DNA from: Plasmodiophora brassicae
Lineage: Eukaryota
Direction: 5' to 3'
DNA: 64,000 nt
Assembly: GCA_036867785.1 (NCBI GenBank)
Contig: CP145410.1
Location: 496,001 to 560,000 of the forward strand
Numbering within the stretch: the first letter of the stretch is position 1; every line of letters begins with the position of its first letter. Shown in pieces: positions 4,971 through 62,334 of the stretch. Made by a program: the position numbers and the translations under genes. The notes below the pieces were generated by a model, which saw only the letters and a program-made list of their open reading frames with translations, ran no database searches and was not told the DNA's origin.

Positions 4971-5487
4971 GAAAGAGGCCGACCGCTGCCGAAAGACAAG
5001 CACATCCTGCGGTTCTTGGTTGCCCTGTGGAACCGGATCAAGGGCGGCGTTGACGTATACAGCAGACACTTGAAGAACCTACATACATTTCCGCCACTCA
5101 TCGCTGAATCCCGTCCAAGCGATCTGACTCAGGATCCTGATGACTCTCGTTTACAACGCCTACCAGTCGCACACCATGTGTCACGTAATTCGACATCCAA
5201 TGCGATGCAACCCTTGACTAACAAACACTTATAAGGTTAACGACTTCCTAACGAACGAACGAGCGTGCCAAACGTTCCACATGGTGTGCGACTGGTAGAC
5301 GTTGTAAACGAGAGTCATCAGGATCCTGAGTCAGATCGCTTGGACGAGGTTCAGCGATGAGTGGCGGAAATGTATGTAGGTTCTTCAAGTGTCTGCTGTA
5401 TACGTAAACGCCGCCCTTGATCCGGTTCCACAGGGCAACCAAGAACCGCAGGATGTGCTTGCCTTTCGACAGCGGTCGGCCTCTTTC
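4971..5487. repeat. 210-bp inverted duplication of the transposase C-terminal catalytic segment
   Basis: 4971-5180 is the reverse complement of 5278-5487 with about 6 mismatches. The 97-nt spacer contains TTAA (5237-5240). Confidence 0.9.
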
Positions 5488-10157: not shown

Positions 10158-10247
10158 TACAGTAGATCGGCCGATCTGGAGAACGCAACGCCTACAAACA
10201 TAGCCGCCGCCTGCCAATTGCGAGAAACGCATGAACGAGGGGCTGTC

Positions 10248-15595: not shown

Positions 15596-18500
15596 TCAGA
15601 CGTCCAGTTGAGTGATTAGAGCGACACCACGCTGGACCCAGTGCGAGGACGGCTGCTCCGTCGGTAGGCGGATCGACATGACGAAATTCGTCGAATGGCC
15701 TGTCGTCGAGAGCGTCCCCCGACGTTCAGTGGTTTTGTACACCGGGCAGTCGTACTTTGCTCCTGGCTTGATGTCCACAGATCGCTGTGGGCGTAACCAG
15801 ATGATGGGCGCCAACGAAAACAGGACTTTCGGCTGGGATTCGACCAGGACGTTCGTCTGTGCGTCCCACTGAGCGGCTTCGAGGAACAGCCCGTGGATGT
15901 AGGCGCCGTCGGCCGGGCGGACAATGGACGGGTCCGATGGGTCGCGGTTGACGAACTCGAAATCGAAGCTGATCTCATCGATCGGGATCGTGTACCGACG
16001 CGAGTAATTCTACACACACACACACACGTGAAGCGGTTAGCGGGTCCAGGTCGTCGACACGACGGGCGCGTCCTGTACCTGAAGGACGCCGGTCAGGAAC
16101 GACTGCGTGAAGAAGAACCCGGAGATCCAGAAGACGTTCGGCGCGGACCCGGTCTGGACCCATTTCTGGAAGTTGTTCAGCCGGGCGACCAGATCGCTGA
16201 CGTAGCTGGACAGCGGCTTCAGCGTCGGGTACGACACCGCCAGCCACCGCCTCGGCACGCATCCGTCGAACAGCGCATCGCCGATCTGCTCCAGGTCGGC
16301 GGACATGACGACCAGGCCAACTGCGCACCGCGAATGGTCAAAGCCCGGACGACGCCGCATTTGACGGCCGAACCATCGCACCGAGCGCTTTTTGCAGATC
16401 GCTGAGCGAACTGCGGACGACCGCCACGAGGCGGTTGTACCGGATGACCTCCTGGCACAGGACCGTGTTCATGCTCTCCTTGTACGTCACCGGGAACCGC
16501 TCCTGGACCTTGTCCAGGTCGAACGGCGTCGGGACCTTCGACAGGATGTCGGCGGCTATCGCGCCGACGATCTCCTCCTGCCGCGTTCCCGGTCAGCCAG
16601 TGCGCGCCCCCAGCGGTACCCGACGTCGTTGCGCCCGACCTTTGATTTGGTCCCCGCTGACGACGTCCGCGCCTGCGTCTGGAGAATCGAGCGGAACAGC
16701 TGGGCGGTCTCGTTCCGCTCCTTGGTGATGTCGGCGTTGTCGTGCAGGCCGAACGCCTCCGGTCGGGCGACGCTTGGCAGGCCCTTGACATGTTCGATGT
16801 ACGACGTGTAATCCCCGGCGTCTGGCACCTGAACGCGATACCGTCAGCTGCGAACCGCATCGGGCGTCGCGCCTGGAGGCCCAACCAGGTACACTCCCGA
16901 CTCCGACAGCGGTGTTCCCCTGGCGAACACATTCGGGGACACGAACCGGGACAGGATATCCGTCAGGGTGCGGCGATCCCAGTCGTCAGTGACGCGCCCG
17001 CCGTAATTGCACTGCCCGACCAGGTACTGGATCGCCTTGAACGGGATCGCGTCGACGGATTCCGCTCGCCCCACGAACATGTGCAACTGCCGGACGCTGA
17101 TCCTCAGGTCGCTCTCGTTGAACTCGTAGGGGATGTTCCACCCCAGCGGCCCGAACATGCGACGCTCCTGAACCAGGGCGTGGAAGAAACACAGCCCGTA
17201 GAGCATCGACATCCTGGCGCCGAGGGTCAGCGGGTGGTGGGGCAACGACGCGGAACGACGCGGCTAACCATTGGGGTTGATGGTTCGACCCGCCAAAGAA
17301 CTCAGGGTCGCAAATCGGGTCCCGCGAGTACGACCCGAGCAGGTTGGCGCGAAGGCCCTTGGGCGGTTCGTTCGTCATCTTGATGCCCCGCTGGAGGATG
17401 GAGACCGGGAACCGGTCGCTCGGGTACGACGTCAGCCACAGGCGGTAGTCGGCGTGCGTGCTGGTCGACGTCGTCGTCTCGACGATGCGCTCCAGCGTTG
17501 GCATCCACGAGATCGCCAGGTGGCAGTTCTGCAGGATCACCCAGGTGCCACGTGCCTGCGCCACTTCAATCATGGATGCCGCCAGCGGGCCCTGGTATAC
17601 ACATCAGTGCCGAAACCCGGCTGGGCGTTCCTGTCGCGGCAGTACCTGGCCCTGCCCCAGCGATATCGACTCGAGACGCGTGCCGAACCCGTTGTCGGCT
17701 GCGAACTTCAGCAAGCTCGAGTACGGGTCCTGACGGGGGAGCCTCAGTTCTGGTGGGGTGCGTCTACCCCGTTTGTGAGCCAACGCACCGATCCTGGCGA
17801 CAGGATGAACATGAGGGGGATCGTCGGATCCGAATCGCGGAATGCGGCGCCGAGATCGAACGGAGGCGCCTCCACGAACCGCTGCCCGAGGCGGTCGCCG
17901 ACAAAGTCGCGTACGGCGGGGAACACCTTGTCCGGGCGAAGGCAACGCAGTATCAACATCTTCTGGAACGAATCCAGCGCTGTGCCGACGTCAACGTAGG
18001 GCGAGAACGACAACGACGCGGTCGGCCACTGACATGTTTGCAATTCACCAGGCAGGTGCGTCTGGTGCGGTTCGAACGCGTCGTACACGCGTTTCCAGTC
18101 GGCGCTGTACTCGCCGAACGTGGTCGCCAGGCTAGCGAACGCGGGCAACGATGATGATAGGCGGCACAGGTCGGACCAGACGGAATCCTGTAGCCAGTCG
18201 GGGCAGGGATTGCTCGACGCGGGCCCGTCCGAATCCACAGCAATGCCTCCTGTGCGGCACGCCGCCCAGTTAACGCAACGATAAGGACGGGACGAACAGG
18301 CGCAGCAGACCGGTCAGCAGGAACCGCCACTCGTCCTGGCGGATCTTGCCGGCGCTCCTGAGGATGTTGACGGCCAGCAGGAAGGAGAACAGGAGCTTGT
18401 CCTTCTCGAAGAGCGATCGGCAGACGGCGCAGTACAGGGCGTACGTGCAGTAGTCGTTCAGGTTCTGCAGGCGCGTCTCGAGGACCGGCGACGGTTCGCT

Positions 18501-21500
18501 GGACGTGATCGACTTCTGGAACAGGGCGATGAACCAGCCCAGCGAGTACTGGTACATCGGGTCGATGTTGGCCAGGTCGGCAATGCAGAAGAACAGGATC
18601 GACGAATGCACGGCGACGGGTTTGTATCCCAGGCGGGCCACATCAATCTCCTTTTCCGTCTTGTCCGAGATGGCCTGCTTCTCGGCAATGTCGTTGGAGA
18701 CCTGCTTCGAAGCGGACAGCACCTGGATGGCGCTCTCGTCATCCAGGATGCTGCCCTGGGTCGACGACAGGATCTTCAGGATCTCGTCCTCGATGTCCTT
18801 CAGTTTCTTCCTGTTCTCGGCGCTCTGCATGATCAGGCGGTTCTTCTCGGTCTGGAGCTCGGGGCGCTCCCGAGCGACGACCAGGCCCAGGAGCTGATCC
18901 TCGAGGCCGTCCGGCGTGATCATGAAGTTCAGCAACGTGATCTTGGTGGACAGCTCGGGCAGGTAGTGCGGGTTCCGCATCTTCGACGTGATGTAGAACC
19001 GGAACGCGTCCGAGTACTCGACCTCGGCGTCGCCCAGCTTGATCATCTCGATACCGCCCTTGCGGTACGTCTGCTTTAGCAGGACCGGCTCCAGCAGCGG
19101 GTCCAGCTCCTCCCCGACGTTCTCCAGCAAACAAGGCACCCCGAATTGGATTGCACCTGGCACCGATTTGTCAGCGCTGGGCCGGGTGTGCCCATGCGGT
19201 TTCGGGGCCCACCTTCCAGACGTCGACCGAAGTCGGGGTCGGTGAGCTTGCAGATGACGAGCTTGCGTTCCCGCTCCATGTTCTTGATCCAGATGTTTGC
19301 CTGGCCCTGCGGGTCGATCATCAGCGGCCACCGGCGCGCCTTGTCGATGATGATGGCGTTGTCGATCGAGAACGCGTCGTTCGGCAACCCATCCAGCGTC
19401 CACTGGCGAATTCGAACCGGATCCCCTAACGGCCACGGTCACAGACCAGACACCCTAGCAGGAGAGAGGACAGGCCACTACCGAGGGCGCCGGCTAGCGA
19501 GAATCGTTCAGCGCAGGTGAGGCCCAGGGACCGGCACGCGTTCGCCCACTCCTCGGTGCACGATGATCGGAAGGCGGCGGTGAAAGCGCCCAGATAGGCG
19601 ATGACGCCCGCCGACAGGATGATGTCGCCGGTCAGGTTCGCGTACTGGACGCCCAGTGCATGGGCGGCGTCCGTCCACCTGTCCTTCTCGCCGCCCAGGC
19701 CGCCGATCAGCTGCTGCGCCCGGACCAGCTTCTTCCCGCACAGGTCGACCTGCGCCTCCAGGTCGCTCTTCTTCTGCTGCATCCTCGACAGCGTCGAGTT
19801 CAGACCGGCCAGCTTCGTCTCCACTGTGTTCAGCTCGGCCTGCTTCGCCAGCAACCCCTACGACGCCGCCCTGTTTGAACCGTCCCCGACCGCCTCTGCA
19901 TTCGCGTCGCGTTACCTTCTCCACGACGGCGTACTCGGCCTTGGCCTGTTCCAGGCGTTCGCGCTTGGGGCGGATGGCGTTGGCGACTTCGTCGTACTGG
20001 TACATGGCGCGCACCCAGGAGCACAGGCCGAACGCCGCCTTGGACGCCTTCTTCACCGACGCCGGGTCGAACAGCGGGTTGTCGATGTACGTGGCGATCT
20101 TCTTGATGATGTCGCGCGGGATGTTGTCCTTGTCGTACGACGACAGCGTCGTCAGCAGTTTCGGGTCGCTCAGCAGCTTCTTCTTGGCCGGGTCCCAGTA
20201 GTCTTTGACCATCTTGCCTGTGCTGTCCGGCGATCTCGTCGGCGGGATGTTCATCATGACGCAGACGGCCTCCATGACGACCAGGACGCCGGCCGGCGGC
20301 GATTTCATGGCTTTGACCTCGACCAGGTCGTTCTTGGTCAACGTGTTCAGGGCGGCAATGGCCGCCTCCAGGATCGGCATGGCCTGGGCCAGGTCGGCGC
20401 CGCATTCGTCCGCGATCTGCTTGGCGGCGCTGGCCTTCTCGTTGGCGACGATCTCCTCCTGCTTCACCAGCGACCGGATCTGCTCGGCGTCGCGCGTCTC
20501 CTTGTCGACCTGGACGATCATCTCGTCGGTCTCGACGCCCGTCCTAATCAGGACCGGGCGCAGCTCCTCCAGCTCCTGCAACATGTTCTTCACCTGGCTC
20601 GCCGTCGTCGCCAGCACCTGCAGCCCGCCTTCGTACCGCTGCTTCGTCGACACGATCTGGCGGCGACGTTCCGCCAGCAACGATTTGAACGCGGTTATCA
20701 GCTCCAGGTACGACGACGGCGTCACGTAGTACCGGCGGCGAAGCTCCTGGTGGAATCGGACGGCCAGATCGTCGGTGCTTTGATGGAACTGAACGCAGAG
20801 CTTGACGCAGGACGCGCGAGTCGCCTCGGGCAGGTCGACGTCGGCGATGAACTCACGCGCCACACTCTCTGTGCCCATCGACAACGTCGTCAGCAGTGCT
20901 ATACGAAGGTTCGCCGCCGGTTCGCGGTGTACCGAGCGCGTTCGTCGGCCACTTCTGGAACCAGTCGATCGTGCAGCAGTTGACCAGGGACGGGAACATT
21001 CGCAGGCGATTGCGCAGAGCGTCCCCGACGGGCGACATGCAGAGCGCCAGGTGGAGGTTCTCGCGTACCATTTCCGTGAAGAACGCCATGCACTGGGCGG
21101 GCGTGCCGTCTTCGCGTCGCGCGCGCTTGTACGCCGGCTGCAGGTTCGTGGAGATCTCGGCGCGCTCCTCGACGCCGAACAGGTTCGGGACCTCGCCCGA
21201 GTTCAGGATGCCGTTGATGTCCTCGAGGAACGCCTCCTTCTTGATCTGCGAGTCAGTGAACAGGAACACGGTCGGCTCCTGCTTCTCGCCGGCCCAGCGC
21301 AGGACGCGCTTCAGGTCTTCGCGCCACTCGTTCATCCCGTACGTCTTGTTCATCTCGACCTGGAACAGGCGGTACCCGGCGACGTACGCCGCTAGCCGCG
21401 TCAGCGACTGGCGCCCTGTGCCACCAACGCCAACGAGCAAGGCGTGCCCGAACGGTTGCTTCAGCACCCGCGATATCCTCGAGACGTGCTCCAGCGCGAA

Positions 21501-24500
21501 CCGAAACAGGACGAGGCGCATCGGCGACCCGAACTCCTGGTTATAGTTCTCCAGCTGCGCCGCGAACACGTTCCGCATGGCGACCGCGTCGAGGACCTCC
21601 TGGTACGGGCGCGCGCCCGCCGACGATTTCGTCATGAAGTGCCCGTACATCAGGCCCCGAATCTCGTCCAGCGTGTCGACGACGCCATCGCCGTTGTTGT
21701 CGAGCCGGGCCAGGCATGCGTCGAAGTTCACCTTCAGGGTCGACTCGGCCGTCGTGCGCACCCACCCGAGGAACTTGAGCGCGTCCCCGTCATCAATCAG
21801 GCGGTCGGCGAACACGCGGTGCACTTCATGGACCCAGAGCCGCACGAACGCCATGCCGTCCGGGAAATCGTCGGCCCTGGACATGCACAGGCCGCGGATG
21901 ACGCTGGCCAGATCGCGCAGGTTGAACGTGTAGTGGGATCGCGCCGGCGTCGGCAGCAACTCGGCGGTGGCCGTCTTGAACAGCGCCCTGGTCGCATCGA
22001 CGATCGCCCCGACCAGGCCAACGACGCCGCTGGCGAACCCTTTCCCTGCGCGTGCGCGTGCTGTCAGCGAACGGCGGGCCGTCGTCATCGGCAGGAACGC
22101 CGACCTAAGTGCCAGTGCAGGATGGCGGTGAAGATCGTCGTCAGACTGGCGTCATCGAACGGCGTCATGGTGACGTGCGAGAAGTGCCTCGTCAGGCGCG
22201 ACGTGATCGGGTTACGCCCGCCACCGGGTGGCCCCATGGCGCACACCACCGTCGTGTCCAGCATGGTCCGGAACGACGCGTCGCCGACATCGTACCTGGC
22301 ACGCGCACACGGCGGGTCAGTCGCGCCCGGCACGCACGCACATACGCGCGCGCGGTGCGTGTGTGCCGCTGCACGCACCATCCGCCGTGGTCCAGGAACT
22401 GTCGCAGCAGCTCCAGCGGCGGCTGCGCGCCGAATTGCTCCGGCTTTGGCATGTTCAGGTCGTCGATGAAGATCACGCAGGTGCGGTTGCCTGGCGGGCC
22501 GTACACGCCTTTCCGTTTGCGATCCTGCGCGTCCGATCAGCGTCCGAAGGTGCCGGGAGGCGGTTGTCCCCCGTACGAGTTTGGCGTCGATGATCTCCCG
22601 GGTCTGGGACGCCGACGTCTGCGCCGAGAAGCTGATGACGAGCGGCGCGTATGCGTCCTTGTTCATGGCGGCCAGCGCCTTGGTGATGTAGGCGGACTTG
22701 CCGGTGCCGGTCGGGCCGACGAACAGGCCCGGGATGCGCGCCCGGGCGAACAGCTGGGTCAGGATCGTGTACCGCGCCGAGTCGATGGTCGGCACGATGA
22801 TCTCCTGGATGCGGGCGTTCGCCTCGATGCGGAATTCGGACGACGACCCCATCATGGACGACCAGGGCACCCAGCCGCCCGCGTTCCACGCGTAATCGTA
22901 GACGGATCCCTTGTCGGGCAACCTCATGTGCTACCAGGCCGTCACGTCCGGAACGTGGCAACACGATCAACGAAACCGACCTGGGACTTGCTGTTGGCCG
23001 GGTCGCTGCAGATCTCGCGGACGTGGTTGTTGAACAGGGCCCGGCCGTTCTCGTCCACTGACGCGCCAATCGACCAGACCAGAGCGAACACAAAGTACCC
23101 TTCGACGTCCTTCGGCGCTGTGATTGACAAGGTTCAGTGCGCGCACCGGGACATTGAGGCAACCTGTACGAACTCGCTGGGGCGTGCTGGGTGGCCTCTG
23201 TCAGAAGGACCTTGTACATGCGGAGCAACGCAGTCGCGAGGTTCATATCGCTTGTCGGCGAGTATTCAACACACTTCCGGCGAACGAGCTTCGACAACGG
23301 GTTTAGTGGGGGCTGGCGTCGCGTGCTGTGATGCAGCATACCTCGAGCGACGTGGGAATGAAGCGCTTGACGAGATTCTGGAAGGCGGTGGCGTTCAAGA
23401 CTTCCGTGGGCATCGCCGATTGCCACGAGTCGATCAACGGCTGAACGCCGAGCGATTGCGGCTCCAGGAACACCATACCGCATCGCGACACCGTTGCGGG
23501 CGACGCCACTGCCAGGTCGGCGACCTGAGCGTCAACCGTCAGGATCCCAGCCGGGCGTCAAACACAGAGACCCCGGGGCTTGCCTCGAAGATCATGTTCA
23601 TCGTCGACGACATTTGGATAATCTCGCCCGACATGAGACACAGCTTCTTGTTGTCATCCAGCACCGTGTTCATGTTCTCGATCCACAACGTGTCGACAGG
23701 GCCGTCAAACATAACCTGGCCATACATTACATCTGACGGAAACTGGCGGGGACCAGCTCGCACCCACTAACCCATTTCCGGGCTTCCGTCTCAGCAGCGG
23801 CGAGCCGCCGGAAATGAACGGACAGCAGCCCGTCCTTCCATTCATGGGACACGGGATCGAACTGGCCTGCACCCGCCGGTCAGCTCTGCGGAACATGGTC
23901 GATGTTGCACCCGCTGGGCGTACCGTATATTTCGTTGAGGGTGATCGATTTGGGGTTCAGCGTGACCAGTTCGACGGGTTCCGCGCTGATGTCCGACAGC
24001 GCCCCGGCCAGGACGCGTATGGCCGACGTCTTCCCCGAGAAGGGCTGCCCGACCAGCATCAGCCCGTGCCGCACCTTAATCATCTCGTGGAGCTGAAGGA
24101 TCTGCGCGCACACACGGTTCAGCCAGAAGGAGACACACGACATCATCTGTCGCACCTTCTCGAGGAACTCAGGGACAGGCCGCAGGTTGCGCTTGGCCAA
24201 GTTGGCCTGGATCGCGGGCATCAGCGTCGAGTAGTCGCTGACCGGGCGGGCGACACCCGGGAACAGGTCGCCAATGATGCCGACGAACAGGGGAATGTCC
24301 TGCGACAGGAACTTGGGCAGGTTGACGTCGTTGATCGAACGCAGCATCAGGCGGTTCTCGTCCTCGGTCGGCTCTAGACGCTTCAGGTTGCCGGCGGCAG
24401 TCAGGACGGCCTTCACCGCCCTCATGCCGTAATCGTAATGGTCCTGCGAAGACAGCTGCTCGCTGCACAGCTTGTATGTGGCCACAATCTTACGCGCCAG

Positions 24501-27500
24501 GGCGCGCGCCTCCACGAACCCGCACGAGTACAACGTGATCTCGGCGATCATCTCATAGTTGGGCACCATCATGGCCACCGTCCTGAACAGCGACTTCAGG
24601 TTATCCGGCAGCTCCGATCGTCCGGCGTAACCCGGGTTCATCGTGATGAACACGTTGCACGACAGGCGCAGGCGGATCTCGGTGCCCTCGAATCGGAAAT
24701 GGTGGGCCTTGGCGGCAACCGCCCGCTGGATGCTCAGCACCTGCTGCGCGACAACGGACAGCACTTCCAGGTCGATCCGGTTGAACTCGTCGAAGCAGGA
24801 CCAGGCGCCGCTCGACGCCAGGCCTTTGAAGAACTTGGACATGGCCAGGTAGTCCAGCCCGTCGGAGCAGTTGAACACGACGCATTGGATGGCCATGGCC
24901 TTGGCCAGGTCCTTGACCGTTTCCGTCTTACCCGTACCGGCAGGGCCTTCGGGTGCCCCGCCCAGGTTGAACTGGATCGCGCCCATCAGCGTTCGGTAGC
25001 ACCGATCCGTCAGCGGCGTGATGACCAGACGGTCTGAGTTGCCCAGGTACTCGAACCCGTACGCCAGGTCGGAATTGATGATGCGGACCTTGACCGTGTC
25101 CTCGAACCAGTAGTACCTCAGCTGCGACGTCCACTCGAAATCGGTGATCTGTTCACTCGTGAATCTGTCTCGCCCCACGACCGACCCCATGCGGCCGCTG
25201 TTACCTGCGAGACGTTCGCCTTGACAAGAGCCTGGAGGGTATCACGGGCGTGAACATCGATGACGACGAGAGCGCCCAGGGTACGACGCTGCAGGCGGGT
25301 CAGCTGGCCGCGAACCAACGCGACAATCTTCTGCAGGTGCTCGTTGGACTCGTCGAGGAACGCTTTCAGCGTGCCCGACATGCCGCCGTTGTTGCCGGCG
25401 ATGGCTTTCTCGACGAGGGACGTCCAGAAGATCTGGCTGACGGCCAGGACGACCTGCCCGGGCCAGTTCAAGACCCACTGCTCCCTGGATTCGTTCGCGT
25501 ACGCCACCATGGCGTTCGACACGCTTGCCTTCACGCTCGCGAACATCAACGTTTCGACATCGCTGAGCCAGCGCTCGACGGCCCCGTTTGCATCCTTCGG
25601 GTTCATCGTCGACGTCAACGCCAGCCTCTCCCCTAACCATCATCATCATCAACATCGATATTGGATCACGCGCGCGCGTTCACGCATGTCTCGGTACCTT
25701 CGGGGGAGAACAGGGCGGTCACATCGAGGTTCTCCTGGAACTCCAGCTTGGAGACCCCTTCGAAGCACTTCTTCAGGTGCGGCTGGACACGTGTTGGATC
25801 CTTCGTTTCGGCCAGGATCTCGAGCAGCTCGTTATCGGACAGGAAGAAGAACCTGGCCAGCATGGGTCAGCGCTTATGGTTGCAATGGATCTGTCAGTGA
25901 TGGACCTCGGGAAGAAGAGCCGTTTGGTCTCCAGGTACTGGTTCAACCCGGCCTGGATCTTGTCGAGCATGGCGCGTGCTGACGTGAGCGACTCGAGCAG
26001 GTTGGGTATCCTGGAGACGGCCAGGGCCTGTGGCGTGATCTCGACCTCCGACATGATCGTGCGCCAGGCCGTGTCGACCTGCCGGAACAGGTTGCCCTCT
26101 TCGGGCATCTGCTTCATGATGTCGTCCGACGAGAATATCGGCTCCAGGTACAGCCAGGTCGTTTGCACCTGCAGCCAGTTGTCGATCACGTCCTGCATCG
26201 TCACCAGCCAGGACTCCCACTCCCGAATCTGCTCCTCGAACGCCTTGGCGAAACTCGACCCCTTCATCGTCTGCGTCTTCACGATGTGGTCGTCCAGCAG
26301 GGTCTGAATTTCCTCGATCCCAGACCCGACCAGGATCGAAGTGCCCGTGTCGCGGTACGACGTGATGGCGAACAGCACCGGGTTCCACTCCTTCTTCATG
26401 GCGTCCAGCGTCTTCTCGATCGAGTACTCCTTGGACGCCGTCTCCGACACCATCTGCAGCTGGTCCAGCGACTTGGCAACGCCCATGTCGACGAACCTGG
26501 TCAGCGACGTGTGGTCGTCCGGGCGCAGGTCGAACCCGACGATCTCCGAGATCGCCGCCCAGTGCCGGGGACGCAGGCCCGGGTTGCACAGCACCTCCAC
26601 CAGCGGGATGTGGACCTTGAACGCCTCCAGCGACGTCTTGATATGGACGGCCACAGAGCCAGCCGAAACAGTGAGTTGCTTCGACAGCTTCAGGGCCGTC
26701 CTCCACATCGTGTCGCACTTCGATTTGACCTGGGGACGGTGTGTAAACGTATTCGCTGGACGACGGACGTCCCAGGCAGGCGAACCTGTTCGGCGTTCAG
26801 GGAGAAGACGGGGCCGTCCACCCATTGCGTGTGGTTCTGCCTGAATTCGGACACGAGCGTCCAGAGGTCCTCGTACGGCGTCAATTGCTCCTTGGCCTGG
26901 TCGAGCAGGTTGAATTGTGTGACAGGGATGCCCAGGAGCTCGTCCTGCTCCTGAATGCGCTTGCATTCCTCGGCTGTCCATGCACGATCAGCAACAGCGT
27001 CGTGCGATGCAGGCGTCACCGTTACTGGCGGCATGCAGGTTCTCCCGAACGTTCTTGATGATGGTGTTGAACTCGACTTCGCGTTTGAGGTCGGTGAACT
27101 CGGCAAAGTCGGCGATCTGGGCGGCGTACGATTCGAGGAGCTTGTTGAACTTCTCCTTGCGGTCCTCGAACTGGCCCTCCATCTTGCGGCGTTCGGCCAT
27201 GAGCTGGGCGTCGGCCTCGACGATGATGGCGTCGAACTTGTGCACCCAGCCGAACGTCGACCCGATATGCGACAGGACGTCGTCGTTCACCAGGTGCCCG
27301 CATTCGAACAGGAACCGCAACTCTTCGACCGCATACGCACAGTCGTTCATCAGGCGCTTCAGCGTCGTCTGCTTGAACGTATTCGAATATCGCACCAGGT
27401 CGACCAGTTCCTATTCGTTGCACATCAGTCCACGGCCGCTCGACCGCAACGGGCCTGCCGAGACCTTGGAATTCAATGGCTTCTTCAGGAGAATGGCAGC

Positions 27501-30500
27501 AACGGTTTTGAACTCATCACAGATGACAACGTTGTGCTCGATGTTTCGCGTCGCAATGTAGGACAAGATCTACATTGGACAGGATTGAATATGCTCTACC
27601 GGTACGTTACCATTCACATCGCAGCACGAACCTGTTTGCTGCATTCGACCAGCTTGCTGACCAGAAGTTCGTTGATCTTCGCACAGTCGAGCGACAGCAA
27701 CCGGCACTGCACAACGGCGCGTGTCCTGTTCTCCAGATCGTCCGTCATCGACCGGAACGACTGGATCCGCTCCCTGAAGTCGTCCAGCGTCCGCGTTTGC
27801 GTCACGTAATCGGACAGGCGCTGCGACTCGTCCAGCAGGTACGAGTACTCGTCGTACAGGTTGACGACGTTGCCGGCGGAAGCCACACATTCGCGAAACA
27901 CGCGTACGATGTCGTCCCGCAGGGCCAGGACTTTGGCGTCGTCGACCTTGAAGGTCAGGTTCTTCGGGTTCTCCAGCAGCGGGAACAGTTTCGTCTCGAT
28001 GCGCGGGATCCCATCCAGCCCGACCAGGATCGCGTCGAAGATGCGGCACAGGGCAGCCTCGATCTCGCCCGGCATCGTCTACAAACGGCGCCCTGCCGTT
28101 AGCCCACACGAAACGGCCGCCCCCTTCGGGACGCACGACCTGGAACTGGATCTTGCGGCGCTGGACCACGATTTTGATGTTGAAGACCGGGGGCGGGACG
28201 GTGTGGTCAGTGGGCGCCCGGACGGTCAGGATGGACGGTGCAGTCCCAGTCGCGAACTGCACGTCGGGGACGTCGATGTAACGCGTGATGAACGCGTGCA
28301 GCTCCTTCGCACTCGACTCGACGATGCTGCGCAGCAGGTTCGTCATCAGCGCGGCGATCGACTCGAAGAACGTGGCGGATCGCTCCGCGTCCTTGTCGAG
28401 GCGCCCGCGGAACACGTCCTCGACCTCGCGCATCTGGGCGCGCGCACGTTCAACGACGTGCTCGTGCCGCTGGCGAACCGAACCAGGTACCCAGTTGTTG
28501 GAGAAGTTGCCCAGCTGATCCTTGATGTGCGCCTTCTGCATCGCCTCGTAGTCCTGGATCGACATGGGCAGCGCCGATTTCGGTGGCACCGCCACCAGCG
28601 ACAGGTTCTCGTACTGGGCCCACAGCTTCTGAATGGCCACTGCCGCGTAATTCACTGGGACAACGATTACCAAATGGCTGTGCGCACAGACAGTGGGGGC
28701 GTTGGGTACCAGTGAACAGGTTCTTGTCGAGGTGGACCCAGGCGTGCTGGATGGGCTCCCGCCAGGTGATCGGTGGGCATGGCTGCGACTTGCACCTGCC
28801 CCAATCGACAACGGCTCGCGGCGGCGGGTCTGCGATATCAAGTCGTGAGCGCTCCTGGGGAGACCTATCCCGAGCAGGTGAGTGGACCACGACACGATCC
28901 GCGCCATATAGACAATGGGTGGTTCACCGAAGGACATAGTCAAGGATGGCGCGCCGGCCGCTCAGCTCGTAGTCTTTGCGCATCTCGGCCAGCATCTCAG
29001 CAAGTCGTGCCTGCGGGCGTGTCAGGCGCGACCAGCGAAATCAGTGCATGGATTAGGTTACCTCAATACGGGCCTGCTGGACGGCGGATACGTCCATGTT
29101 CAGAAGGCGGAGAACGTTATCGACCCACGTCCTCTTAATCGGGACCAGGTCTTCAACGCCGACGCCATGCTCGACGTAATGCTGATGGAGCAATTAGCGT
29201 GAAGATAATGTTTCGTGTCAAGCATACATTGAATCGCCTCTGGCTCTCGGTGATGTCGGACGGTCCAGAGGATGTATCGTCGATGGTCACCGACCGCAGG
29301 GCCGGTTTCGTCGTCTGCTCCACTGGGTCGCTGCGGACCCGTGCCCGACTCAGCCTATTCGACGACATCGTCCAGCGTCCCACCTAGCAGGCCGTTAACG
29401 CAATCGCCGTCGACAACACCGCAGTTGTTGTCAACGAACCTCGGGCGTGTAGAATCCAGCAACCTTGGCGCTTAACGAAATGTCAGCATGGCCGTTCGTG
29501 AACGTCGCCGAACGCGTCCGGCTGAAATTATCCAGCAATGGCGGATAGAGTTCCTGTCGCAGACGTTCACAACCCAGACGCGGCCACGGTCCCAGGTCAG
29601 GTCCAACCTGGTGCTGCTGCGGAAGGTCCCTGATTCTAGGTGGAGACGGGGACCGAGCACCGACCCGTAAGCGGGATGGGGACGTGGGCGACCCGGACCG
29701 CCTCGGGACGGCCCTTGTTGACAAGTTCCCGTGACGAAGTGCCCGGAAGCCTTCCGGGCTCATCTCCCCTCCCGGTTGCTGGGCATGCATCCCCACACGT
29801 TCGGCCAAGGATGACAACCCGACTACCAGTGCGTTGAAACCAATTACAACGAGATGGGAACTCATCGACGCGGCGATTGCGTACCTTGCGACTTGGATCC
29901 CAGGTACGAGTACTTGGCGCGTTTCTGTCGGTGCTCTAAGGCGAGCTTGGCGCGTTCTTCAGCGAGCGCTTTCTCGGCCGACGTGCGGTCGGCATCGGCA
30001 CTGTGCACCAGCAGGTCGACTTTGCGGTCCTCGGCGACGAGCGACGCGAACCCGAAATCGATGATGCACTGGTGGCGGCCGGCGATCACCTCGCCGAGCC
30101 TCTGGAACAGGTGCGACAACGCGATACGTAGCGTGTCGTCTGACAGCGCTGAGTACTTCAGCAGCGCCGATGGGTACATCTTGACGGCCGACGCGACGTC
30201 TTTCTCGAGGATCGTCTGCCCGTCTCGCAACTCCAGGCCGTACTTGTCGACGAAGGGCCTGTAGAAGTAGAACGCGGGTTCCCCGCCCATGGAGGTGTCG
30301 GACGCGTTCGAGTGCTGCAGAAAGACGCCGATGGGTGGGATGGAGAAGGAATTGCCCATGGAGTACTGCCTAGCGGCCCACTGCGTCATGGCCGACCAGG
30401 CGTCCGCATAGGAGCGGCTGTTGATGAGGTTGGTCAGGCGCAAGGCGCCACGGGGCGTGGTGATGTACCGGCCAACGCATTCGCTGACCAGGGTTTCAGC

Positions 30501-35820: not shown

Positions 35821-37203
35821 TCATGGGCCATGAATGGGCACCACCGCGTCGTTGGTCCTCGTCGTCGTGCAGTGCAGGAAGTCGAGCTCGTTCTCCTTCT
35901 GCAGGAATCGCTCCCAAGGGCCGCCATGGCCGGCGCCGACGTACCTGGCGAACGTGTCCTTTCGCATCAGCTGCAGGACCTCCGCCCTGGCGACGTCAAA
36001 CGTGTCCGGTCGAATCGTCGGGTCGGCGGTGGCCGCTCGTAACGCGCCGGCGCTAACGTTCACCGTCTGCGCCGAATGATCCGACACGAGGAACGTCTTC
36101 CGGATCTGCTCCCCGTCGAGCCGGCGTCGATCCTCGGGCAGATGCGGCCAGTTCCGCTCGAACTTTCGGACGGCTTCCCAGAACAGCAGGTTCTCGGTGC
36201 TGAACTCGAGCGTCGCCGCCCTCATCATCATGTCGTAGCCGTCGCGCGTCCCGAGGAACTTCTCGAACAACGACGCCGGCACGCCCGACTCGTCGAGCAG
36301 CGCCTGGCGTTCGGTGGCGTGCTGGTACAGGGGGACGACGACCAGCTCGAACTGGACGTAGGGCGTGGCGATGCCGATCGGGATCACGTAGATGATCCCG
36401 GCGATCGTCACCGTGTCGTGCCAGGCGCGGACGGACCCGAAGTACAGGGCCAGGCCGACCAGGATGACCAGGTGCGTCACCCGGTGGCACAGGTCGATGC
36501 GCCGGAACGACCGGACGATGCCCAGCGAATCGCTCGCCGTCTTCCGCAGGTACCGGATCAGTGGAGCAATGTAGGCGGCAAACACGACGAGTCGCATGGT
36601 CAGGACCGCCAGGTACACGGTGCCGGGGCGCCCGCCGTCCAGCACGGTCGCGTAGAACGGCCCCTGGAGCTGGTCGTGGTACACGACGACGACCAGCAGC
36701 AGCGGCCACTGCCAGATCGTGTTCAGCGCCAGGAACAGGAGCTCAACTCGGACGCTGTTCAGGTACGTGTGCGCCTCGAACCACGACCGCCCGCTGCGCT
36801 CAGCGCTGCCGGCGGGCGCCACCCGCGCCGACGTGGACCCGTCGAGCATTGTCTTCCGTCGGGGGCGTCGCGCGTCCCGCTCCCGATGCAGGTTGAACAG
36901 GAAGAAGTAGTTCCAGACGAGGACGACGATCGCGTCCAGGGCCAGGCCCATGAACGCGAAGTGCCAGGCGATGACCTGCCAGGCGGCGACCCTGTCCGGG
37001 TACACGAACGCGACGACGTTGCTGGACGTGAACGCGAGCGCGCACGCGAAGAAGAAGCAGGTCGTGTGGGGGCGCCGCGCCGACACGCATCGCGACGACC
37101 GGCGGGTCGCCCAGAACAGGATGACGGCGGGGACCATCATCGCCCCACAGGCGAGCCCGGTCCCGCCCACGACCGACGCCACGATGTACACCGGCGGCCA
37201 CAT
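35821..37203 (-). CDS. Seven-transmembrane RGS protein (7TM-RGS)
   Basis: About seven hydrophobic helices, then an RGS box (FEKFL...EFSTENLLFWEAVRKFE...VNVS...FDVARAEVLQLMRKDTFARY). Intronless. Confidence 0.88.
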   Translation of the reverse strand: MWPPVYIVASVVGGTGLACGAMMVPAVILFWATRRSSRCVSARRPHTTCFFFACALAFTSSNVVAFVYPDRVAAWQVIAWHFAFMGLALDAIVVLVWNYFFLFNLHRERDARRPRRKTMLDGSTSARVAPAGSAERSGRSWFEAHTYLNSVRVELLFLALNTIWQWPLLLVVVVYHDQLQGPFYATVLDGGRPGTVYLAVLTMRLVVFAAYIAPLIRYLRKTASDSLGIVRSFRRIDLCHRVTHLVILVGLALYFGSVRAWHDTVTIAGIIYVIPIGIATPYVQFELVVVPLYQHATERQALLDESGVPASLFEKFLGTRDGYDMMMRAATLEFSTENLLFWEAVRKFERNWPHLPEDRRRLDGEQIRKTFLVSDHSAQTVNVSAGALRAATADPTIRPDTFDVARAEVLQLMRKDTFARYVGAGHGGPWERFLQKENELDFLHCTTTRTNDAVVPIHGP

Positions 37204-37318
37204 CGGAATCGGGGGCTGGGTGCGGCGGCACGATCGTCCCCTCCAGGCGGGTCCATGGCCGGTCACGTGATGTGCCCCCGGCGGCGCGTGCCACCCCGCG
37301 AATAGGTATCTGCCGTCG

Positions 37319-38776
37319 ATGCCAGCAGCGACGACGACGATCACGGTCGTGCTGGGTCGAGCAACGGCCCGTGTCGCATTCGACCCCGGGACCTGCCCCG
37401 TTCTGCAACCGCCGCGCCTCTGGGCGGCGCTCGACTTCGACGCCGCCCAGATCGAGTTCCTGCGCGTGACCGGCCTGCGCCCGGTCGGCCACCCGGTGCC
37501 GATCGCGGCCGTGCCGATGAGGTTCGTCGGGCAGGCCCTTCAGCGGTGCGACGAGAGCGTGGCGGAGGTGACGGGCGTTCCAACGAGCGGGCTGAACGAC
37601 GGCGAGACGTACGAGGTCGTCGTCCGGGACACGCGCGACCTGCTCGCCGAGAGGCTGACGGACGAGCAGCGGCGCCAGATCGACCTGATCTGGGCGACGG
37701 TCGCCGCCGATGGCGAGTACAGCGTGCCTGTCGGTGTCGTCCTGGAGCGGGTGCGCGCGTTCGAGATGGACCTGCTGCGCGAGTCGGTTCAGGGCCGACC
37801 CGATCGACGCGACCTGCTCGAGCGCCTGTTCGAGCAGAAGGTGGAGCAGGAGCTGGCCCTGTGGCGGACGTTCGACGTGCGCCGCACCGGGTACATCAGC
37901 AGGGACGACCTGGTCCTGGGCGTCGGCCCGATCATCCGCATTCGATCCGGCCTGGCGGATCTCGACGACCCGAACGTCATCGCGTCCGTCGCCCAGTACG
38001 ACGACAATCATCGATGGTCCCCGATGCCCTCCTATGGTTGCCATCGAGCCGGCGACGACGACCATGGGCAGACGTCGGCACCTACCGGGCAACAGCAACC
38101 ACGAAGCGGACCCGCTGCCCCTGTCGGCAACGACGACGACGACGACGTGGAACCGTTCGCTGTGGAGGCCAGCGCTGGGCGCCAGACCCGACATGGCGCC
38201 AGCACTGGCGTATCCATCATGGACCAGCAGCGTCCTTCGGGGCGGGTCGATGTGCAAACGCAGACGAGCCCGGTGAACGGAAACAGTGACGACGACGACG
38301 ACGACGACGATGACGATGACGACGATGGCCAGGACGAGGCGGCGGCGACAGAGACGGAGACGGCGTCGGAAAGCGTACCTGGATTGGATCGCGTAAGGCG
38401 TAAGGTGGTTCGTGTGGTGATCTGTCGGCCTGGGTCGTGGTGGAACGCGAGAACGATCAAACGGGTTATGCTCCTGCATTCGTCACCGGACATGAGCGCG
38501 CATGCCATCTGGTATAAGAAGCCGAGCAAGACCTGGGAGCACTGCGAGTACATCCCGGTGGAGCGCATTACGCGCGTCGTCTTGGGACCCGGCGAGTTCC
38601 CCGGGAACGAGTCGAGCAGCATCCAGGATGGTGCCCGCGACGGGTTCCACTTCACCATCGAGTACGCGTCCGGGAGCGGCGACGACGACCGCGAGCACCT
38701 ACACGTGTCCATGAAGCGGGAGCGAGATCGGGACGCCTGGTGCAACGCGCTCCGTCACCTCATCCAGCAACGATAA
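37319..38776 (+). CDS. EF-hand plus C-terminal PH-domain protein with a poly-Asp linker
   Basis: EF-hand-like FDVRRTGYISRDDL; (GAC/GAT)n Asp run at ~38288-38326; PLC/Mcp5-type PH signature IPVERITRVVLG...FTIEY...LHV...RDAWCNALRHLI. Confidence 0.7.
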   Translation: MPAATTTITVVLGRATARVAFDPGTCPVLQPPRLWAALDFDAAQIEFLRVTGLRPVGHPVPIAAVPMRFVGQALQRCDESVAEVTGVPTSGLNDGETYEVVVRDTRDLLAERLTDEQRRQIDLIWATVAADGEYSVPVGVVLERVRAFEMDLLRESVQGRPDRRDLLERLFEQKVEQELALWRTFDVRRTGYISRDDLVLGVGPIIRIRSGLADLDDPNVIASVAQYDDNHRWSPMPSYGCHRAGDDDHGQTSAPTGQQQPRSGPAAPVGNDDDDDVEPFAVEASAGRQTRHGASTGVSIMDQQRPSGRVDVQTQTSPVNGNSDDDDDDDDDDDDDGQDEAAATETETASESVPGLDRVRRKVVRVVICRPGSWWNARTIKRVMLLHSSPDMSAHAIWYKKPSKTWEHCEYIPVERITRVVLGPGEFPGNESSSIQDGARDGFHFTIEYASGSGDDDREHLHVSMKRERDRDAWCNALRHLIQQR

Positions 38777-58095: not shown

Positions 58096-60168
58096 TTACG
58101 TGACGGAAGTCGGATCAGGAACAGCGGGGTTGTCCTCGAATAGGCTGCGGGCGGATGCACGCTGGTTGTCTAGCCGTTTGAATGTGAACCCCTCGAAGGC
58201 TGGCTCCTCGCACGGTTCGCCTTCACGTTGTTCGCTTTCATCACCGAACGTCTGGAAATGAGACGTGTCCGTTGGAGAAAGAAGCTTGGGTACAACCGGC
58301 GGGCGCATGTTCCTCACGTTATTCCAATCAAACCTAACACGTAGCGAGTTCACTGAAGCTCCGCAGGTGCCCAATACACGTATGGCGCCTACCCTTCGAA
58401 GAACCGGTGCCGCTTAATGCCTGTGAAATCGAGTCGTTTGTCTGCGCGGCACAGCAGTCGCCTGATCAAATCGACATCCGGTCGGGAGCGGTCGAACCCA
58501 TCTGGGAACGTCAACGACTCCCGGTAGGAAAGTATCTTCTTGCATGTCTTCACCGCCGTATCGGCACAGAATGGCGGGTACCCGATCAAACTGCTCCGAC
58601 GATCAGTGTTTCGCCCATACGGACGTAAACGTAAACCGCCGTCTACACTGACCATTCGTACATGATGATGCCGAGAGACCACCAGTCGCACCTGTCAGAT
58701 CACCCTCATCAGACGCATTACGAGAGACAAATCCAGGGTGGCAGCGTACCGCTGGTCGTATCCATGAGATAACAGGACTTCAGGTGCGATATCTGTCTCT
58801 CGTCAGAACGAGGCAATGCACGTAACGACATTGATAAATACAGTCGGGGGTCCCAACGGTGGAGTAGACGAGTTCGCGATCGCGTTTAGACCGAATGGAG
58901 TGTCTGAGACCAGGATCCGCTGGCGCCGCTCCCGGTGCGTGCTCACCCTCGGCGAGAACCTGGGCACGAAGTTCCATGATTGTTGCATCTTCGTTCCGTT
59001 TCAGCGTCGTGCACAGGCCAAAATCAGTTAGCTTGATATGCCCATTCCCATCGATTAGACAGTTGTCAGGTTTCAGGTCTCTGCGCGACAGCAACTGAAC
59101 ACAAGGCCTTGAAATGGGGCGTGCCGAACCTACCGGTGCATGTAATTCAACTGGTGAACCGACTGCAGCGCCAGAGCAATCTCGGCGATATAGAAGCGAG
59201 TCTCACTCTGTGCGTTTGGCGAATCAGCTCTGAGAGACAGTGCTGGAAACACGAAGTACCAACAGCAGATAGCGTCCCGCGGTTGATTAGGAGCGACAAG
59301 AGATCGCCACCAGGAACGTACTCCAGACAAAGGTAGAGGCACTTGACATCCTATAGGGGACGGGGTCAATGTCCTCTACTAGTGAAGCGCGCGTTAAGCC
59401 GCATACTTGAAACGAGTAAAGCAGCTTGACAACCCAGCTATTATCAGCTAAAGCGAGCAGGTTCCTTTCAGCCATGATGTGAGACACCTAGCTAAAGTCA
59501 AGGCTGATGCCAACAAGTCCAAGCGTAGACCATAGGTCACCTGATTTCTTCGCAACTATAGAGGGAACCAAATTCAGCGTTTGCACCCAGAGAGCTGATT
59601 AACAATTCAGCAAACCATCTCAGATTTCAGCATCGTCTTCATTGCAAAGACCCGGCCAGTGACCTTCTCACGTACAAGAGCGACCTGGCACATCCGCCGT
59701 TTAAGAACGAGCGGGCCAACAATAGAGAGCATACTGCCGACCTCTCCAAAGCCTCCGCGACCGATTGTACGTTGGCGGTCGAAGTCATCGATGCAGATTT
59801 TCTTCTTGGAAATCATTTCGTCGATGTCGCGTGGGCTTAGATCGTTCTCTTTCTCATCGATCTTCGACGCCATCATGTTCGAGAGCTCGTCGTTCAGCCC
59901 GATTCTTGCTAGGGCATCTTCCATTAAGTGCCGTTTCTTCGACCGTCGTTTAACGGCTACCGCTCTCGACCGCACATGCCTATTTGCAGGGCAAGTTAAA
60001 CTGAGGAACCGCAAACTTGAGAAATGACGGGACATACCTCTCAAGCAGCGATGTCGCTTCGTCATTCAGTAAATGGTGGTGTTTCTCAGTACCAGCACCA
60101 CCAGTTGATGGCACCACATAGAGGTTGCCGTTGGCATTATCTGGACCGGCGCTATAGCAACACCCCAT
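58096..60168 (-). CDS. NDR/LATS-family (STK38-like) AGC kinase
   Basis: [43 protein letters not shown] and hydrophobic motif FEGFTFKR. The N-terminal MGCC exon is spliced in frame via intron 59980-60037. Confidence 0.92.
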
Positions 60169-60468
60169 TACAATTATATGCACGAAAGCCCAGCACTGAC
60201 GAGCAGCGACAACAAACGTCTGTGTCTGGACCGTGGGACATGATGTCTAGACTGTCGACTCGAAGAGGTGCCTCACATCTGCGCAGCCCTCTACTCCCAA
60301 ACACACGAGCCAGTTCTGTACATGACACCGCCTTTGCTGGTCGTCGATCATCATCGACAGCGAACTCCCGTACGTTCCGCAAGTGTCGCATATCCTCGAC
60401 GATCCCATGTGTGCCCAGGGAGTTGAAATGTAATCAGAATATGGGAGCCGGGATTGCAAACGCCGACG

Positions 60469-61091
60469 TCAGCCCGATTCAATCACGAGATTGGCGTACT
60501 GAACAGTGCACCCAGTTCGGATGATCCCGATGGAGGCGGGTACCCTGGACTTCAGTTCGTTGTGATCTTCCCACACAATCGGACACCCGGTGGCTTCAAG
60601 TTCGCGCATGAACGGCTCCACCACCTCCTGTCCAACGACGTTAGTAAGTCAGCAACTCCAGCGGAGAGAAGCGACGGCATGCCTCTCCAGGGTTGCTCGA
60701 TCTCAGCTGCGTGGCGACGAATATTCGTGCAATCTTGAAATTGCAGCGCAGCGCCTGAAGAACATCGAGCACAGAAGGAACATCGTCGACAAGCCTTTCA
60801 CAATGTGGGTGCCAGACATTAGCCCCGACATGTAAGCGCTTACGAGATATCGATCGTTTCAGGGCCCTTGTTGAAATACGGGAACCCTCTATTGCATCAC
60901 AGACCATAAATGCCGGGGAAATGGGTAAGCGAAGAACGCCCCATTACCGGTCTGCAATCACGAGCGTATTCGTATGACGGACACGTGCGATCAGCGATAA
61001 GATGGCGGGGTTCAGGATCCCGTTTTCGATCTGCACTCTGACTGCGTCAGTTGACGCCACCACCAGTCGGGTCACACCCAGCTCAAACCAT
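60469..61091 (-). CDS. rbsD: RbsD/FucU-family D-ribose pyranase/mutarotase (five exons, 133 aa)
   Basis: Exons 61089-61091, 60948-61030, 60844-60888, 60683-60794 and 60469-60627 splice to MIENGILNPAILSLIARVRHTNTLVIADRGFP...IDISLVDDVPSVLDVL...EDHNELKSRV...IIRTGCTVQYANLVIESG. Confidence 0.85.
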
Positions 61092-61253
61092 TCTTCGGGA
61101 TGAGGCGCCTACTGAATAGGAGTACAATACGTACCGCTCCGGACGCCGAATCTCCAAAACGGACCCGATGACGGCAGGTGCACTGCCGCCCGCCACCGAT
61201 TTTACGTCCTGCGACCAGAGAAGCTTCCCATCGCAAACGCCAATACAAGGGTG

Positions 61254-62334
61254 CTATGTATTACTGTGATCAGGAATCCGGCAGCAGCAGATGTAGACAA
61301 AGTGGTCAGGATGGGATAGGTGCCGGCAAAGTCTCTCGATGGGCGTATCGCCGGGTAGCACAATGCCATGGACAGAGAACTTGAACGGCAGTGACGTGAT
61401 GTCAGCGTCGTTGACGACGTGCTGGAATGCGGTGGAGATGGTCCATTCCTTAGTGGCTGATATTGGACGTTGGTAGCATCGGATACCCCCTGCGCGCGTT
61501 CGCAGGTCAGGTTCTTGCTCCTCGCGAACCATAATGAAACGGACAGGAAGTCGTCTGGACGATCGCGTCGCCAGGGCTGGCTGGACTATGGACTCCTCGT
61601 TGGCAACGTCTGAAATGCTATATGTAAGAAAATAATAGCGAGGTTCAAACCATGCGATTAACCTTCGACGCACGATCGCCATAAAGCATGCAACTCTGCC
61701 GATGATAGGTCCATAACAGGGTTTGTAGTGCCGCATTGCATGAAGAAGGCCTGCACAGGATAGACTCAGTGCACGAAGATCGGCATTTCGATCTTAAGTA
61801 CCTGTTTCAGCGAATGGATGAAGTGGAACTCGCCGGGGCATTTGCCAAGGGACGACGTAACGGGACGCATGACACATTGGGCCGGGAATCCAGAGAAATG
61901 AACAACGAGTCGATACGGCAAGATACCTGCTCGGTCGCCGGATGATCCCGCTTGGCAGTCGAACAGAACGCCTACTGGGTACTGCCATTGCAGAGGACCC
62001 AGAACAGAGCACTCCAGCCAAACATCACGGGACCCGTCAGCGACATGCTCTAAACGACTCCTTCAATCGCTGGTCAGAAATGAAACAGCATAAGCGTCCT
62101 GACTGGCGAACGAATCGATCAGGTCGGGAATATAATGAAGAAAGGTGGCGGTACGTCGAACGAGAACCTACACACATACGGTCAGGTATGGCAACCAAAC
62201 GAAGCGAGCGCGACCCGCACTACATATGTTGGCTCGGGCGGGCCGACCGATGTCAGATCCAATGATGATAGCTCAAAGCGGACAGGAATGTGCCCCCGAC
62301 GAACCCGACTGCCAATCGCAGCCGCATCGTCCAT
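61254..62334 (-). CDS. ATG5: Autophagy protein 5
   Basis: VRRGHIPVRFEL N-terminus, conjugation Lys in FIHSLKQ|A, RLPVRF and C-terminal VHGIVLPGDTPIERLCRHLSHPDHFVYI. Multi-exon. Confidence 0.88.

Follow-up and report, generated by a model that had tools for sequence, protein, structure and literature searches.

Two enzymes of Escherichia coli, the D-ribose pyranase RbsD (b3748) and FucU (b2804), stand for the RbsD and FucU branches of the RbsD/FucU family of sugar pyranases and mutarotases (Pfam PF05025). Animal fucose mutarotase, FUOM, presumably belongs to the FucU branch, as the name of PDB 2wcu, “protein FucU homolog,” also suggests. The transfer of bacterial genes into protists, with later gain of introns, is already documented in general. 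This article describes an intron-split gene on the minus strand (61091-60469) of a 64,000-nucleotide stretch of the Plasmodiophora brassicae genome (GenBank assembly GCA_036867785.1, contig CP145410.1, positions 496,001 to 560,000; hereafter “the window”), whose product resembles bacterial RbsD and probably came from bacteria. A full-text search of the literature brought up no article that connects RbsD or ribose pyranase with Plasmodiophora or with a eukaryote of any kind, and nothing on P. brassicae together with fucose, ribokinase or fucokinase; the papers found on ribose pyranase and horizontal gene transfer all concern bacteria. The words “ribose” and “pyranase” have 0 occurrences in the main text of two genome papers on the species (PMC4815078; PMC6823432), whose supplementary gene lists could still name the gene.

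Five exons, when joined, make a frame of 402 nucleotides (nt), which a coordinate script reads as 133 codons followed by TGA, free of internal stops. The start codon ATG (61089..61091), with an A at position -3, is the whole coding share of exon 1 and is preceded by a 5′ leader (61092..61253) that reaches back to the stop codon of the upstream gene, ATG5. Intron 1 (61031..61088; 58 nt, GT..AG, phase 0) separates it from exon 2 (60948..61030; 83 nt), which carries the N-terminal motif with His20 and Asp28. Intron 2 (60889..60947; 59 nt, GT..AG, phase 2) is followed by the small exon 3 (60844..60888; 45 nt), which lies inside the end-to-end alignment with bacterial homologues, and intron 3 (60795..60843; 49 nt, GT..AG, phase 2) by exon 4 (60683..60794; 112 nt), which has Gln73 where the family has Glu. 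Intron 4 (60628..60682; 55 nt) is of the GC..AG type and has a TACTAAC 14 nt before its acceptor. The coding part of exon 5 (60469..60627; 52 codons and the TGA) brings His103, Lys107, Arg118, Tyr125 and Asn127, as well as Cys121 at a site occupied in the family by Asp or Glu, and is followed by a 3′ untranslated region of at least 60418..60468, position 60418 being the point where the contig of run X8 starts.

This model agrees with assembled sequence from other studies. One contig in each of three sequencing runs (X1, X4 and X8, from three studies and with three different coded organism labels) skips exactly the four predicted introns of 58, 59, 49 and 55 nt, with 0 other differences, so that the junction 61089|61030 behind the lone start codon is seen in all three, whereas the DNA-like run X15 holds the full stretch in one piece with the introns, the first included, retained. 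The exact ends of the intron 4 skip are ambiguous by up to 3 nt (60627/8-60681/2), and GC..AG is its sole spliceosomal placement. Four precise GT/GC..AG excisions are what is expected of mRNA, although the library type is presumed. The sequence is identical across four runs, with no other letters, and the stretch or part of it is present in 20 runs from 11 studies, 15 of these runs holding at least half of the sampled words. Upstream of the ATG the frame contains no other ATG as far as a stop at 61253, and in X1, X4 and X8 the contigs continue through the leader without splicing, from 61089 to a point past 61500; exon 1 therefore contributes the ATG and no other coding bases. The methionine thus placed lines up with Met1 in the bacterial homologues. 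A 9-codon upstream open reading frame (ORF) begins near 61232, within the leader.

The locus is thus a real, transcribed nuclear gene of P. brassicae, and its integration into a eukaryotic chromosome is confirmed by its spliceosomal introns and its eukaryotic neighbours. The intron-split structure that an earlier note had read from the letters alone, with an ATG-only first exon and one GC-AG intron, is borne out by the contigs of three runs. Four introns of 49–59 nt also match the genome average published for P. brassicae, 4 introns of 60 bp per gene, as its genome account states it (PMC4471660). The GC content of the coding sequence is 54%, and 65% at third codon positions (GC3); both values fall among those of the neighbouring genes, and composition therefore says nothing on origin either way.

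What does the gene encode? Curated family libraries were searched exon by exon, and the spliced protein was compared by alignment and with hidden Markov models (HMMs) built locally. Pfam RbsD_FucU (PF05025) matches exon 2 at profile positions 4–28 (23.6 bits, E 7.8e-5) and exon 5 at positions 92–136 (22.1 bits, E 2.3e-4), in collinear order. The NCBIfam model for D-ribose pyranase, NF008761, finds three exons, again collinear: exon 2 at positions 4–28 (16.9 bits), exon 4 at 45–78 (14.3 bits, E 0.037) and exon 5 at 98–136 (24.7 bits, E 2.3e-5). The FucU model NF011949 gave no match to the exon peptides, and the top solved structure for exon 5 is a D-ribose pyranase, PDB 3p12 (E 0.013). Judged by its sequence, the protein belongs to the RbsD/FucU family of sugar pyranases and mutarotases. 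The collinear Pfam matches and the retention of His20 and Asp28 agree with the earlier assignment to this family with its catalytic His20.

The closest relatives are found in bacteria. A phmmer search with exon 5 against 1.84 billion cluster representatives gave 46 matches at E ≤0.001, mostly short metagenomic fragments, and none above 68% identity; that library is clustered at 50% identity, so relatives could sit behind bacterial representatives. One of the matches, P0029, is full-length (131 residues), and its N-terminus is a near-repeat of exon 2. It has at least 7994 relatives among the 8000 candidates scored. Where these carry names, they are RbsD/FucU family proteins from Anaerolineae and Armatimonadetes, and a further cluster includes WP_165107836.1 of Limisphaera. 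The group of bacterial RbsD/FucU proteins that align end to end with the spliced protein consists of sequences of 125–140 residues from Verrucomicrobiota, Acidobacteriota, Chloroflexota and Planctomycetota. Residues 1–133 of the Plasmodiophora protein align with residues 1–129 of these bacterial members at E-values down to 1e-50, a match much too good to arise by chance. Identity is 51–58% in the first 45 rows listed and reaches 60% with an Acidobacteriaceae sequence, the best found, as against 29.5% to E. coli RbsD and 23% to E. coli FucU.

Profile scores order the relationships in the same way. The protein scores 170.5 bits on a local HMM of the bacterial subfamily (205 sequences), very close to the 168.3 bits of L126, a divergent bacterial member kept outside the training set. 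On a local HMM of canonical RbsD (10 sequences) it reaches 88.9 bits, where E. coli RbsD itself reaches 200.5, and on a local FucU HMM (31 sequences) 24.4 bits. The bacterial homologue P0124 likewise finds RbsD entries first among PDB structures (E 1e-16 to 2e-14, vs. 3e-6 for FucU). Four full-length bacterial members score 85.7–90.7 bits on NF008761, whose equivalog cut-off is 93, and 18–26 bits on the FucU model, whose cut-off is 141; some matches in bacterial genomes attain 94–96.5 bits on NF008761. Accordingly, the first impression of a likeness to bacterial RbsD holds good, the protein being much nearer to it than to FucU (88.9 vs. 24.4 bits, with the structure matches of P0124 in agreement). 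Comparison at this level places it in a distinct RbsD-like subfamily of some 129–131 residues, otherwise known here only from bacteria. A curiosity among the matches is P0037, a metagenomic protein of 103 residues whose C-terminal 50 residues are RbsD-subfamily sequence. Its N-terminal half looks by eye like a fragment of a LAGLIDADG homing endonuclease, and the gene may have been interrupted by a mobile element.

A tree of 63 rows and 132 columns was computed with IQ-TREE under LG+C20 with a careful search. Besides the Plasmodiophora protein and the fragment P0041, it holds 32 representatives at less than 72% identity, chosen from the 205 subfamily sequences, 12 sequences from genome searches (10 of the subfamily and two divergent RbsD-like ones, L122 and L123), 10 canonical RbsD sequences, and seven FucU sequences (six from 30 fetched, and that of E. 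coli). A survey of Verrucomicrobiota for canonical RbsD gave FucU orthologues and, with NF008761, mostly members of the subfamily; plasmid records served as the source of canonical RbsD instead. In the tree, FucU forms a clade with 100/100 support, apart from the Plasmodiophora protein, while the subfamily, the Plasmodiophora protein and P0041 make up one clade, also at 100/100, on a long stem. P0041 had been considered as a eukaryotic orthologue sharing an intron, its homology beginning at the exon 3/4 boundary; this was rejected, as it pairs with the bacterial-genome sequence L126 at 99/95.

All sampled evidence on the distribution of the subfamily points to bacteria: each relative with a label is bacterial, and several phyla of soil and fresh water are represented. 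From 357 confirmed genome matches, 80 loci were kept, and every one of their record titles is bacterial: 79 name lineages of Verrucomicrobiota, Acidobacteriota, Planctomycetota, Chloroflexota, Lentisphaerae or Armatimonadota, or Bifidobacteriaceae (L019 and L022), and the last, L034, says just “bacterium.” For L019 and L022, titled “uncultured Bifidobacteriaceae,” the label is probably wrong, the L019 genome having been sampled with the Verrucomicrobia set. No named eukaryotic protein occurs among the 120 best relatives of P0029. A metagenome scan with exon 5 found at least nine loci at 50–62% identity, with no close relative among the matches listed. Look-alike clusters in the Atlas are 97–100% Bacteria, which serves as a lead only. 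Taken as a whole, a bacterial origin by horizontal transfer is likely.

Several observations weigh against reading the gene as a transferred and working member of this subfamily, and they are best considered together. Some concern the material itself. The curated Pfam and NCBIfam scores come from single exons, and each lies under its cut-off (25 bits in the case of Pfam). The RNA library type of the runs with spliced contigs is only presumed, and the assembled contigs fuse the gene with ATG5, which hides its own transcription start; overlapping untranslated regions or read-through transcription may account for this fusion.

Others come from the tree. The Plasmodiophora protein groups with three Acidobacteriota sequences at only 85/87, and its end branch measures 1.52 against a median of 0.46. 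In the approximately unbiased (AU) test, a bacteria-only subfamily clade that leaves the protein outside was not rejected (p 0.58) and was better by 4.6 log-likelihood units. Together with the 100/100 clade, this makes membership of the subfamily firm and leaves the choice between a nested and a sister position undecided. The tree was moreover built without eukaryotic RbsD/FucU sequences, which leaves room for a wider eukaryotic distribution and makes transfer likely rather than proven. Of the bacteria-to-eukaryote transfer proposed in the earlier note, the part that stands is that the nearest sampled relatives are all bacterial and that the introns belong to a host gene; a position inside the bacterial clade does not follow, given the AU result.

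The explanation best able to use these points is that of an old eukaryotic or rhizarian gene, passed on vertically amid widespread loss, or received from another eukaryote, with a likeness to bacteria that would reflect ancient origin or thin eukaryotic sampling. The AU test allows a position of the protein as sister to the whole bacterial sample, its branch is long, its host intron density and host-like composition fit a long residence, and eukaryotic sequences did not enter the comparison. Such a gene must nevertheless be reconciled with 51–60% identity to several bacterial phyla when identity to E. coli RbsD is 29.5%, with a fully supported subfamily clade on a long stem, and with a set of 120 best P0029 relatives in which no eukaryote is named. 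The 46 exon 5 matches, none above 68% identity and mostly metagenomic fragments, speak the same way, and P0041, the sole eukaryote-like fragment, sits beside a bacterial genome sequence. We consider vertical inheritance, or descent from another eukaryote, improbable next to transfer from bacteria.

The remaining difficulties lie in the active site, examined in an alignment of the protein with the 205 subfamily members and 10 canonical RbsD sequences. H20, D28, H103 (E. coli His106), K107, R118, Y125 and N127 are all conserved, and of the 65 columns in which the subfamily is conserved to 90% or more, the protein agrees in 51 and differs in 14. Gln73, at the A-x-E-F site, replaces a Glu present in 100% of the 205 members and in 90% of the 10 canonical sequences, while Cys121, at the IRTG-D-T site, replaces Asp (94% in the subfamily) or Glu (90% in canonical RbsD). 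The roles ascribed to the conserved residues follow the annotation of E. coli RbsD, in which His20 is the proton donor and Asp28, His106 and Tyr128-Asn130 bind the sugar. Through its changed residues the protein may have an altered activity, or have lost it.

Loss of activity would leave an expressed protein that is neither mutarotase nor pyranase, but a sugar-binding or regulatory protein or else a decaying relic. Gln73 and Cys121 stand at near-invariant acidic positions, and the end branch is about three times the median. Such a loss fits poorly, however, with a frame intact over five exons and a sequence identical in four runs, with the retention of His20 and the presumed sugar-binding residues, with 51 of 65 conserved columns kept, and with a subfamily HMM score that equals that of a divergent bacterial member. 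This explanation seems to us slightly weaker even than vertical inheritance. As for bacterial contamination or an assembly artefact, which the bacterial nearest relatives might bring to mind, it has practically no chance of being right, being excluded by transcript-like contigs that lack the four spliceosomal introns and, in X1 and X4, run on into eukaryotic neighbours (ATG5 and a kinase), by the presence of the stretch or part of it in 20 runs from 11 studies, and by a best bacterial identity of about 60%.

Under horizontal transfer, which we prefer, the phytomyxid lineage would have received the gene from a soil or rhizosphere bacterium. Host architecture would have come later, with four introns, each about 55 nt long, a base composition like that of the host and a eukaryotic context around the start codon; the full complement of introns and the host-like composition suggest that the transfer is not recent. 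Its predicted product is a cytosolic sugar pyranase/mutarotase of 133 residues, in which, by analogy with the family, His20 would act as general acid/base and Asp28, His103, Lys107, Tyr125 and Asn127 would hold the free monosaccharide. Such an enzyme would speed ring or anomeric interconversion and so give the form accepted by a downstream kinase or isomerase; in a eukaryote, it would supply a salvage kinase.

Which sugar this might be was approached through the bacterial genes. For each of the 80 loci, the long ORF closest to the gene on either flank was collected if it lay no more than 600 nt away, giving 145 neighbouring proteins, and 122 of these were scanned against family libraries (the rest being six of more than 800 residues and the final 17). 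In most of the loci L001–L080 the subfamily gene itself lies at about 5001–5387. The L-fucose:H+ symporter family fucP (TIGR00885) matches 13 of the 122 neighbours, with a best E of 2.6e-116, and a similarity cluster of FucP-like permeases adjoins the gene in 16 of the 80 loci. L-fucose isomerase domains occur in three to five of the 122, sugar-binding proteins in six and GH43 in four; an alpha-L-fucosidase adjoins the gene at one locus. Phosphoglucomutase/phosphomannomutase accounts for a further eight, upstream and on the same strand. Ribokinase families are absent from the 25 commonest families of the 122 scanned neighbours, whereas rbsK adjoins rbsD in six of nine canonical loci.

The arrangement of these neighbours varies between lineages. 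In Acidobacteriota loci the FucP-like permease lies upstream on the same strand, overlapping the gene or at most 31 nt away, and it is convergent in loci titled Verrucomicrobiota or Bifidobacteriaceae and in Candidatus Acidoferrum L016. In Anaerolineae loci the gene stands between a sugar-binding protein and an L-fucose isomerase. The phosphoglucomutase/phosphomannomutase ends 7–23 nt before the gene, in an operon-like manner, in L006, L008, L016, L019, L022, L033 and L047, and 265 nt before it in L028. Many of the bacterial subfamily proteins carry the source annotation “D-ribose pyranase.”

Sequence thus leads to D-ribose and the subfamily's gene neighbourhoods to L-fucose or a related sugar, so that specificity is unsettled. 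A fucose-type substrate has about an even chance; ribose is possible but more doubtful, and another sugar altogether is unlikely. A gene called “rbsD” in the verrucomicrobial Luteolibacter sp. LG18 adjoins lguG of an L-glucose/L-galactose pathway, as mentioned in the text of PMC12632266, and may be a further sign that proteins of this sort work on L-galacto-type sugars. The label “ribose pyranase,” used in the earlier note, is doubtful, in that the subfamily mostly falls just under the 93-bit cut-off and the genes that recur most often beside it encode FucP-like permeases and fucose isomerase rather than ribokinase; the hedge made at the same time, “ribose or fucose,” is still apt. A bolder proposal joins these threads, and we rate it improbable. 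A fucose-linked bacterial subfamily would have been captured by phytomyxids and would have gained four introns and the changes E->Q73 and D->C121, yielding a sugar-anomer enzyme with retuned activity, or else a sugar sensor, by which an obligate intracellular parasite of plants channels L-fucose or ribose from its host into salvage pathways; the bacterial subfamily would then represent a second, so far unrecognised kind of fucose mutarotase.

The setting of the gene is that of an ordinary eukaryotic chromosome. Its upstream neighbour on the same minus strand is ATG5, whose last coding exon (61254..61793) encodes the UblB domain (Pfam PF04106, E 4.5e-11) and whose stop codon, at 61254, precedes the start codon by a mere 163 nt. 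Downstream, also on the minus strand, lies a protein kinase exon (59607..60065), recognised in the ORF translation by a GxGxxG..AMK motif. A Pfam scan of this piece gave no match, and by eye we take the kinase to be NDR/Cbk1-like. Farther away in the window are a 566-residue ORF for CTP synthase (3170-4870), a LanC-like protein (10158-11795), a very long dynein heavy chain gene that fills much of 17000-29000 (minus strand; AAA_6, AAA_8 and microtubule-binding stalk domains) and an RGS-domain protein (35821-37539). The CTP synthase is 100% identical to that of P. brassicae in NCBI and UniRef, so that the protist host supposed from the letters is indeed this rhizarian, the clubroot pathogen.

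When the words of exon 5 were looked for in proteins of 92–2000 residues, in a collection of 5.8 billion clusters, one candidate came up and no match. The CTP synthase of P. brassicae is present in that same collection, and the gene thus seems to be unannotated there, unless as a shorter model of 29–91 residues. The finding adds a protein-coding gene apparently missing from the protein sets of the genome of a crop pathogen. It also offers a clean, transcript-supported case of a bacterial-type gene with the full intron architecture of a protist, including a start codon cut off by an intron from the rest of the frame and a GC-AG intron. Acquired sugar-handling genes are candidates for explaining how an obligate biotroph exploits the carbohydrates of its host. 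On the bacterial side, there is a hint of a large “RbsD” subfamily tied to fucose genes, and if the fucose linkage is true, many “D-ribose pyranase” entries in databases may be mislabelled. Nothing here overturns current views, and the wider interest is modest.

Set beside known systems, the gene is closest to the bacterial subfamily of about 129–131 residues, seen in Limisphaera ngatamarikiensis (WP_165107836.1), in Anaerolineae and also in Armatimonadota. Length and full alignment agree, and the two have in common an N-terminal motif, GILNP..L..ARVRHTN.LVIADRGFP, and a C-terminal one, IRTG.T.QYAN. Unlike its bacterial counterparts, the Plasmodiophora gene is nuclear, with four spliceosomal introns, small insertions and a long branch, and it is flanked by ATG5 and a kinase, with no neighbour for sugar transport or catabolism. 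With canonical RbsD (E. coli b3748; PDB 1ogc from B. subtilis, and 3p12) the protein shares the family and, presumably, the fold, and E. coli His20, Asp28, His106, Lys110, Arg121, Tyr128 and Asn130 are all matched in it; the bacterial subfamily nonetheless lacks the adjacent rbsK/rbsACB found at six of nine canonical loci. With FucU (E. coli b2804; NF011949) and FUOM it has Pfam PF05025 in common, but FucU forms a separate and distant clade. In function, however, the bacterial subfamily may parallel FucU, its genes often lying beside those for FucP-like permease, FucI and fucosidase.

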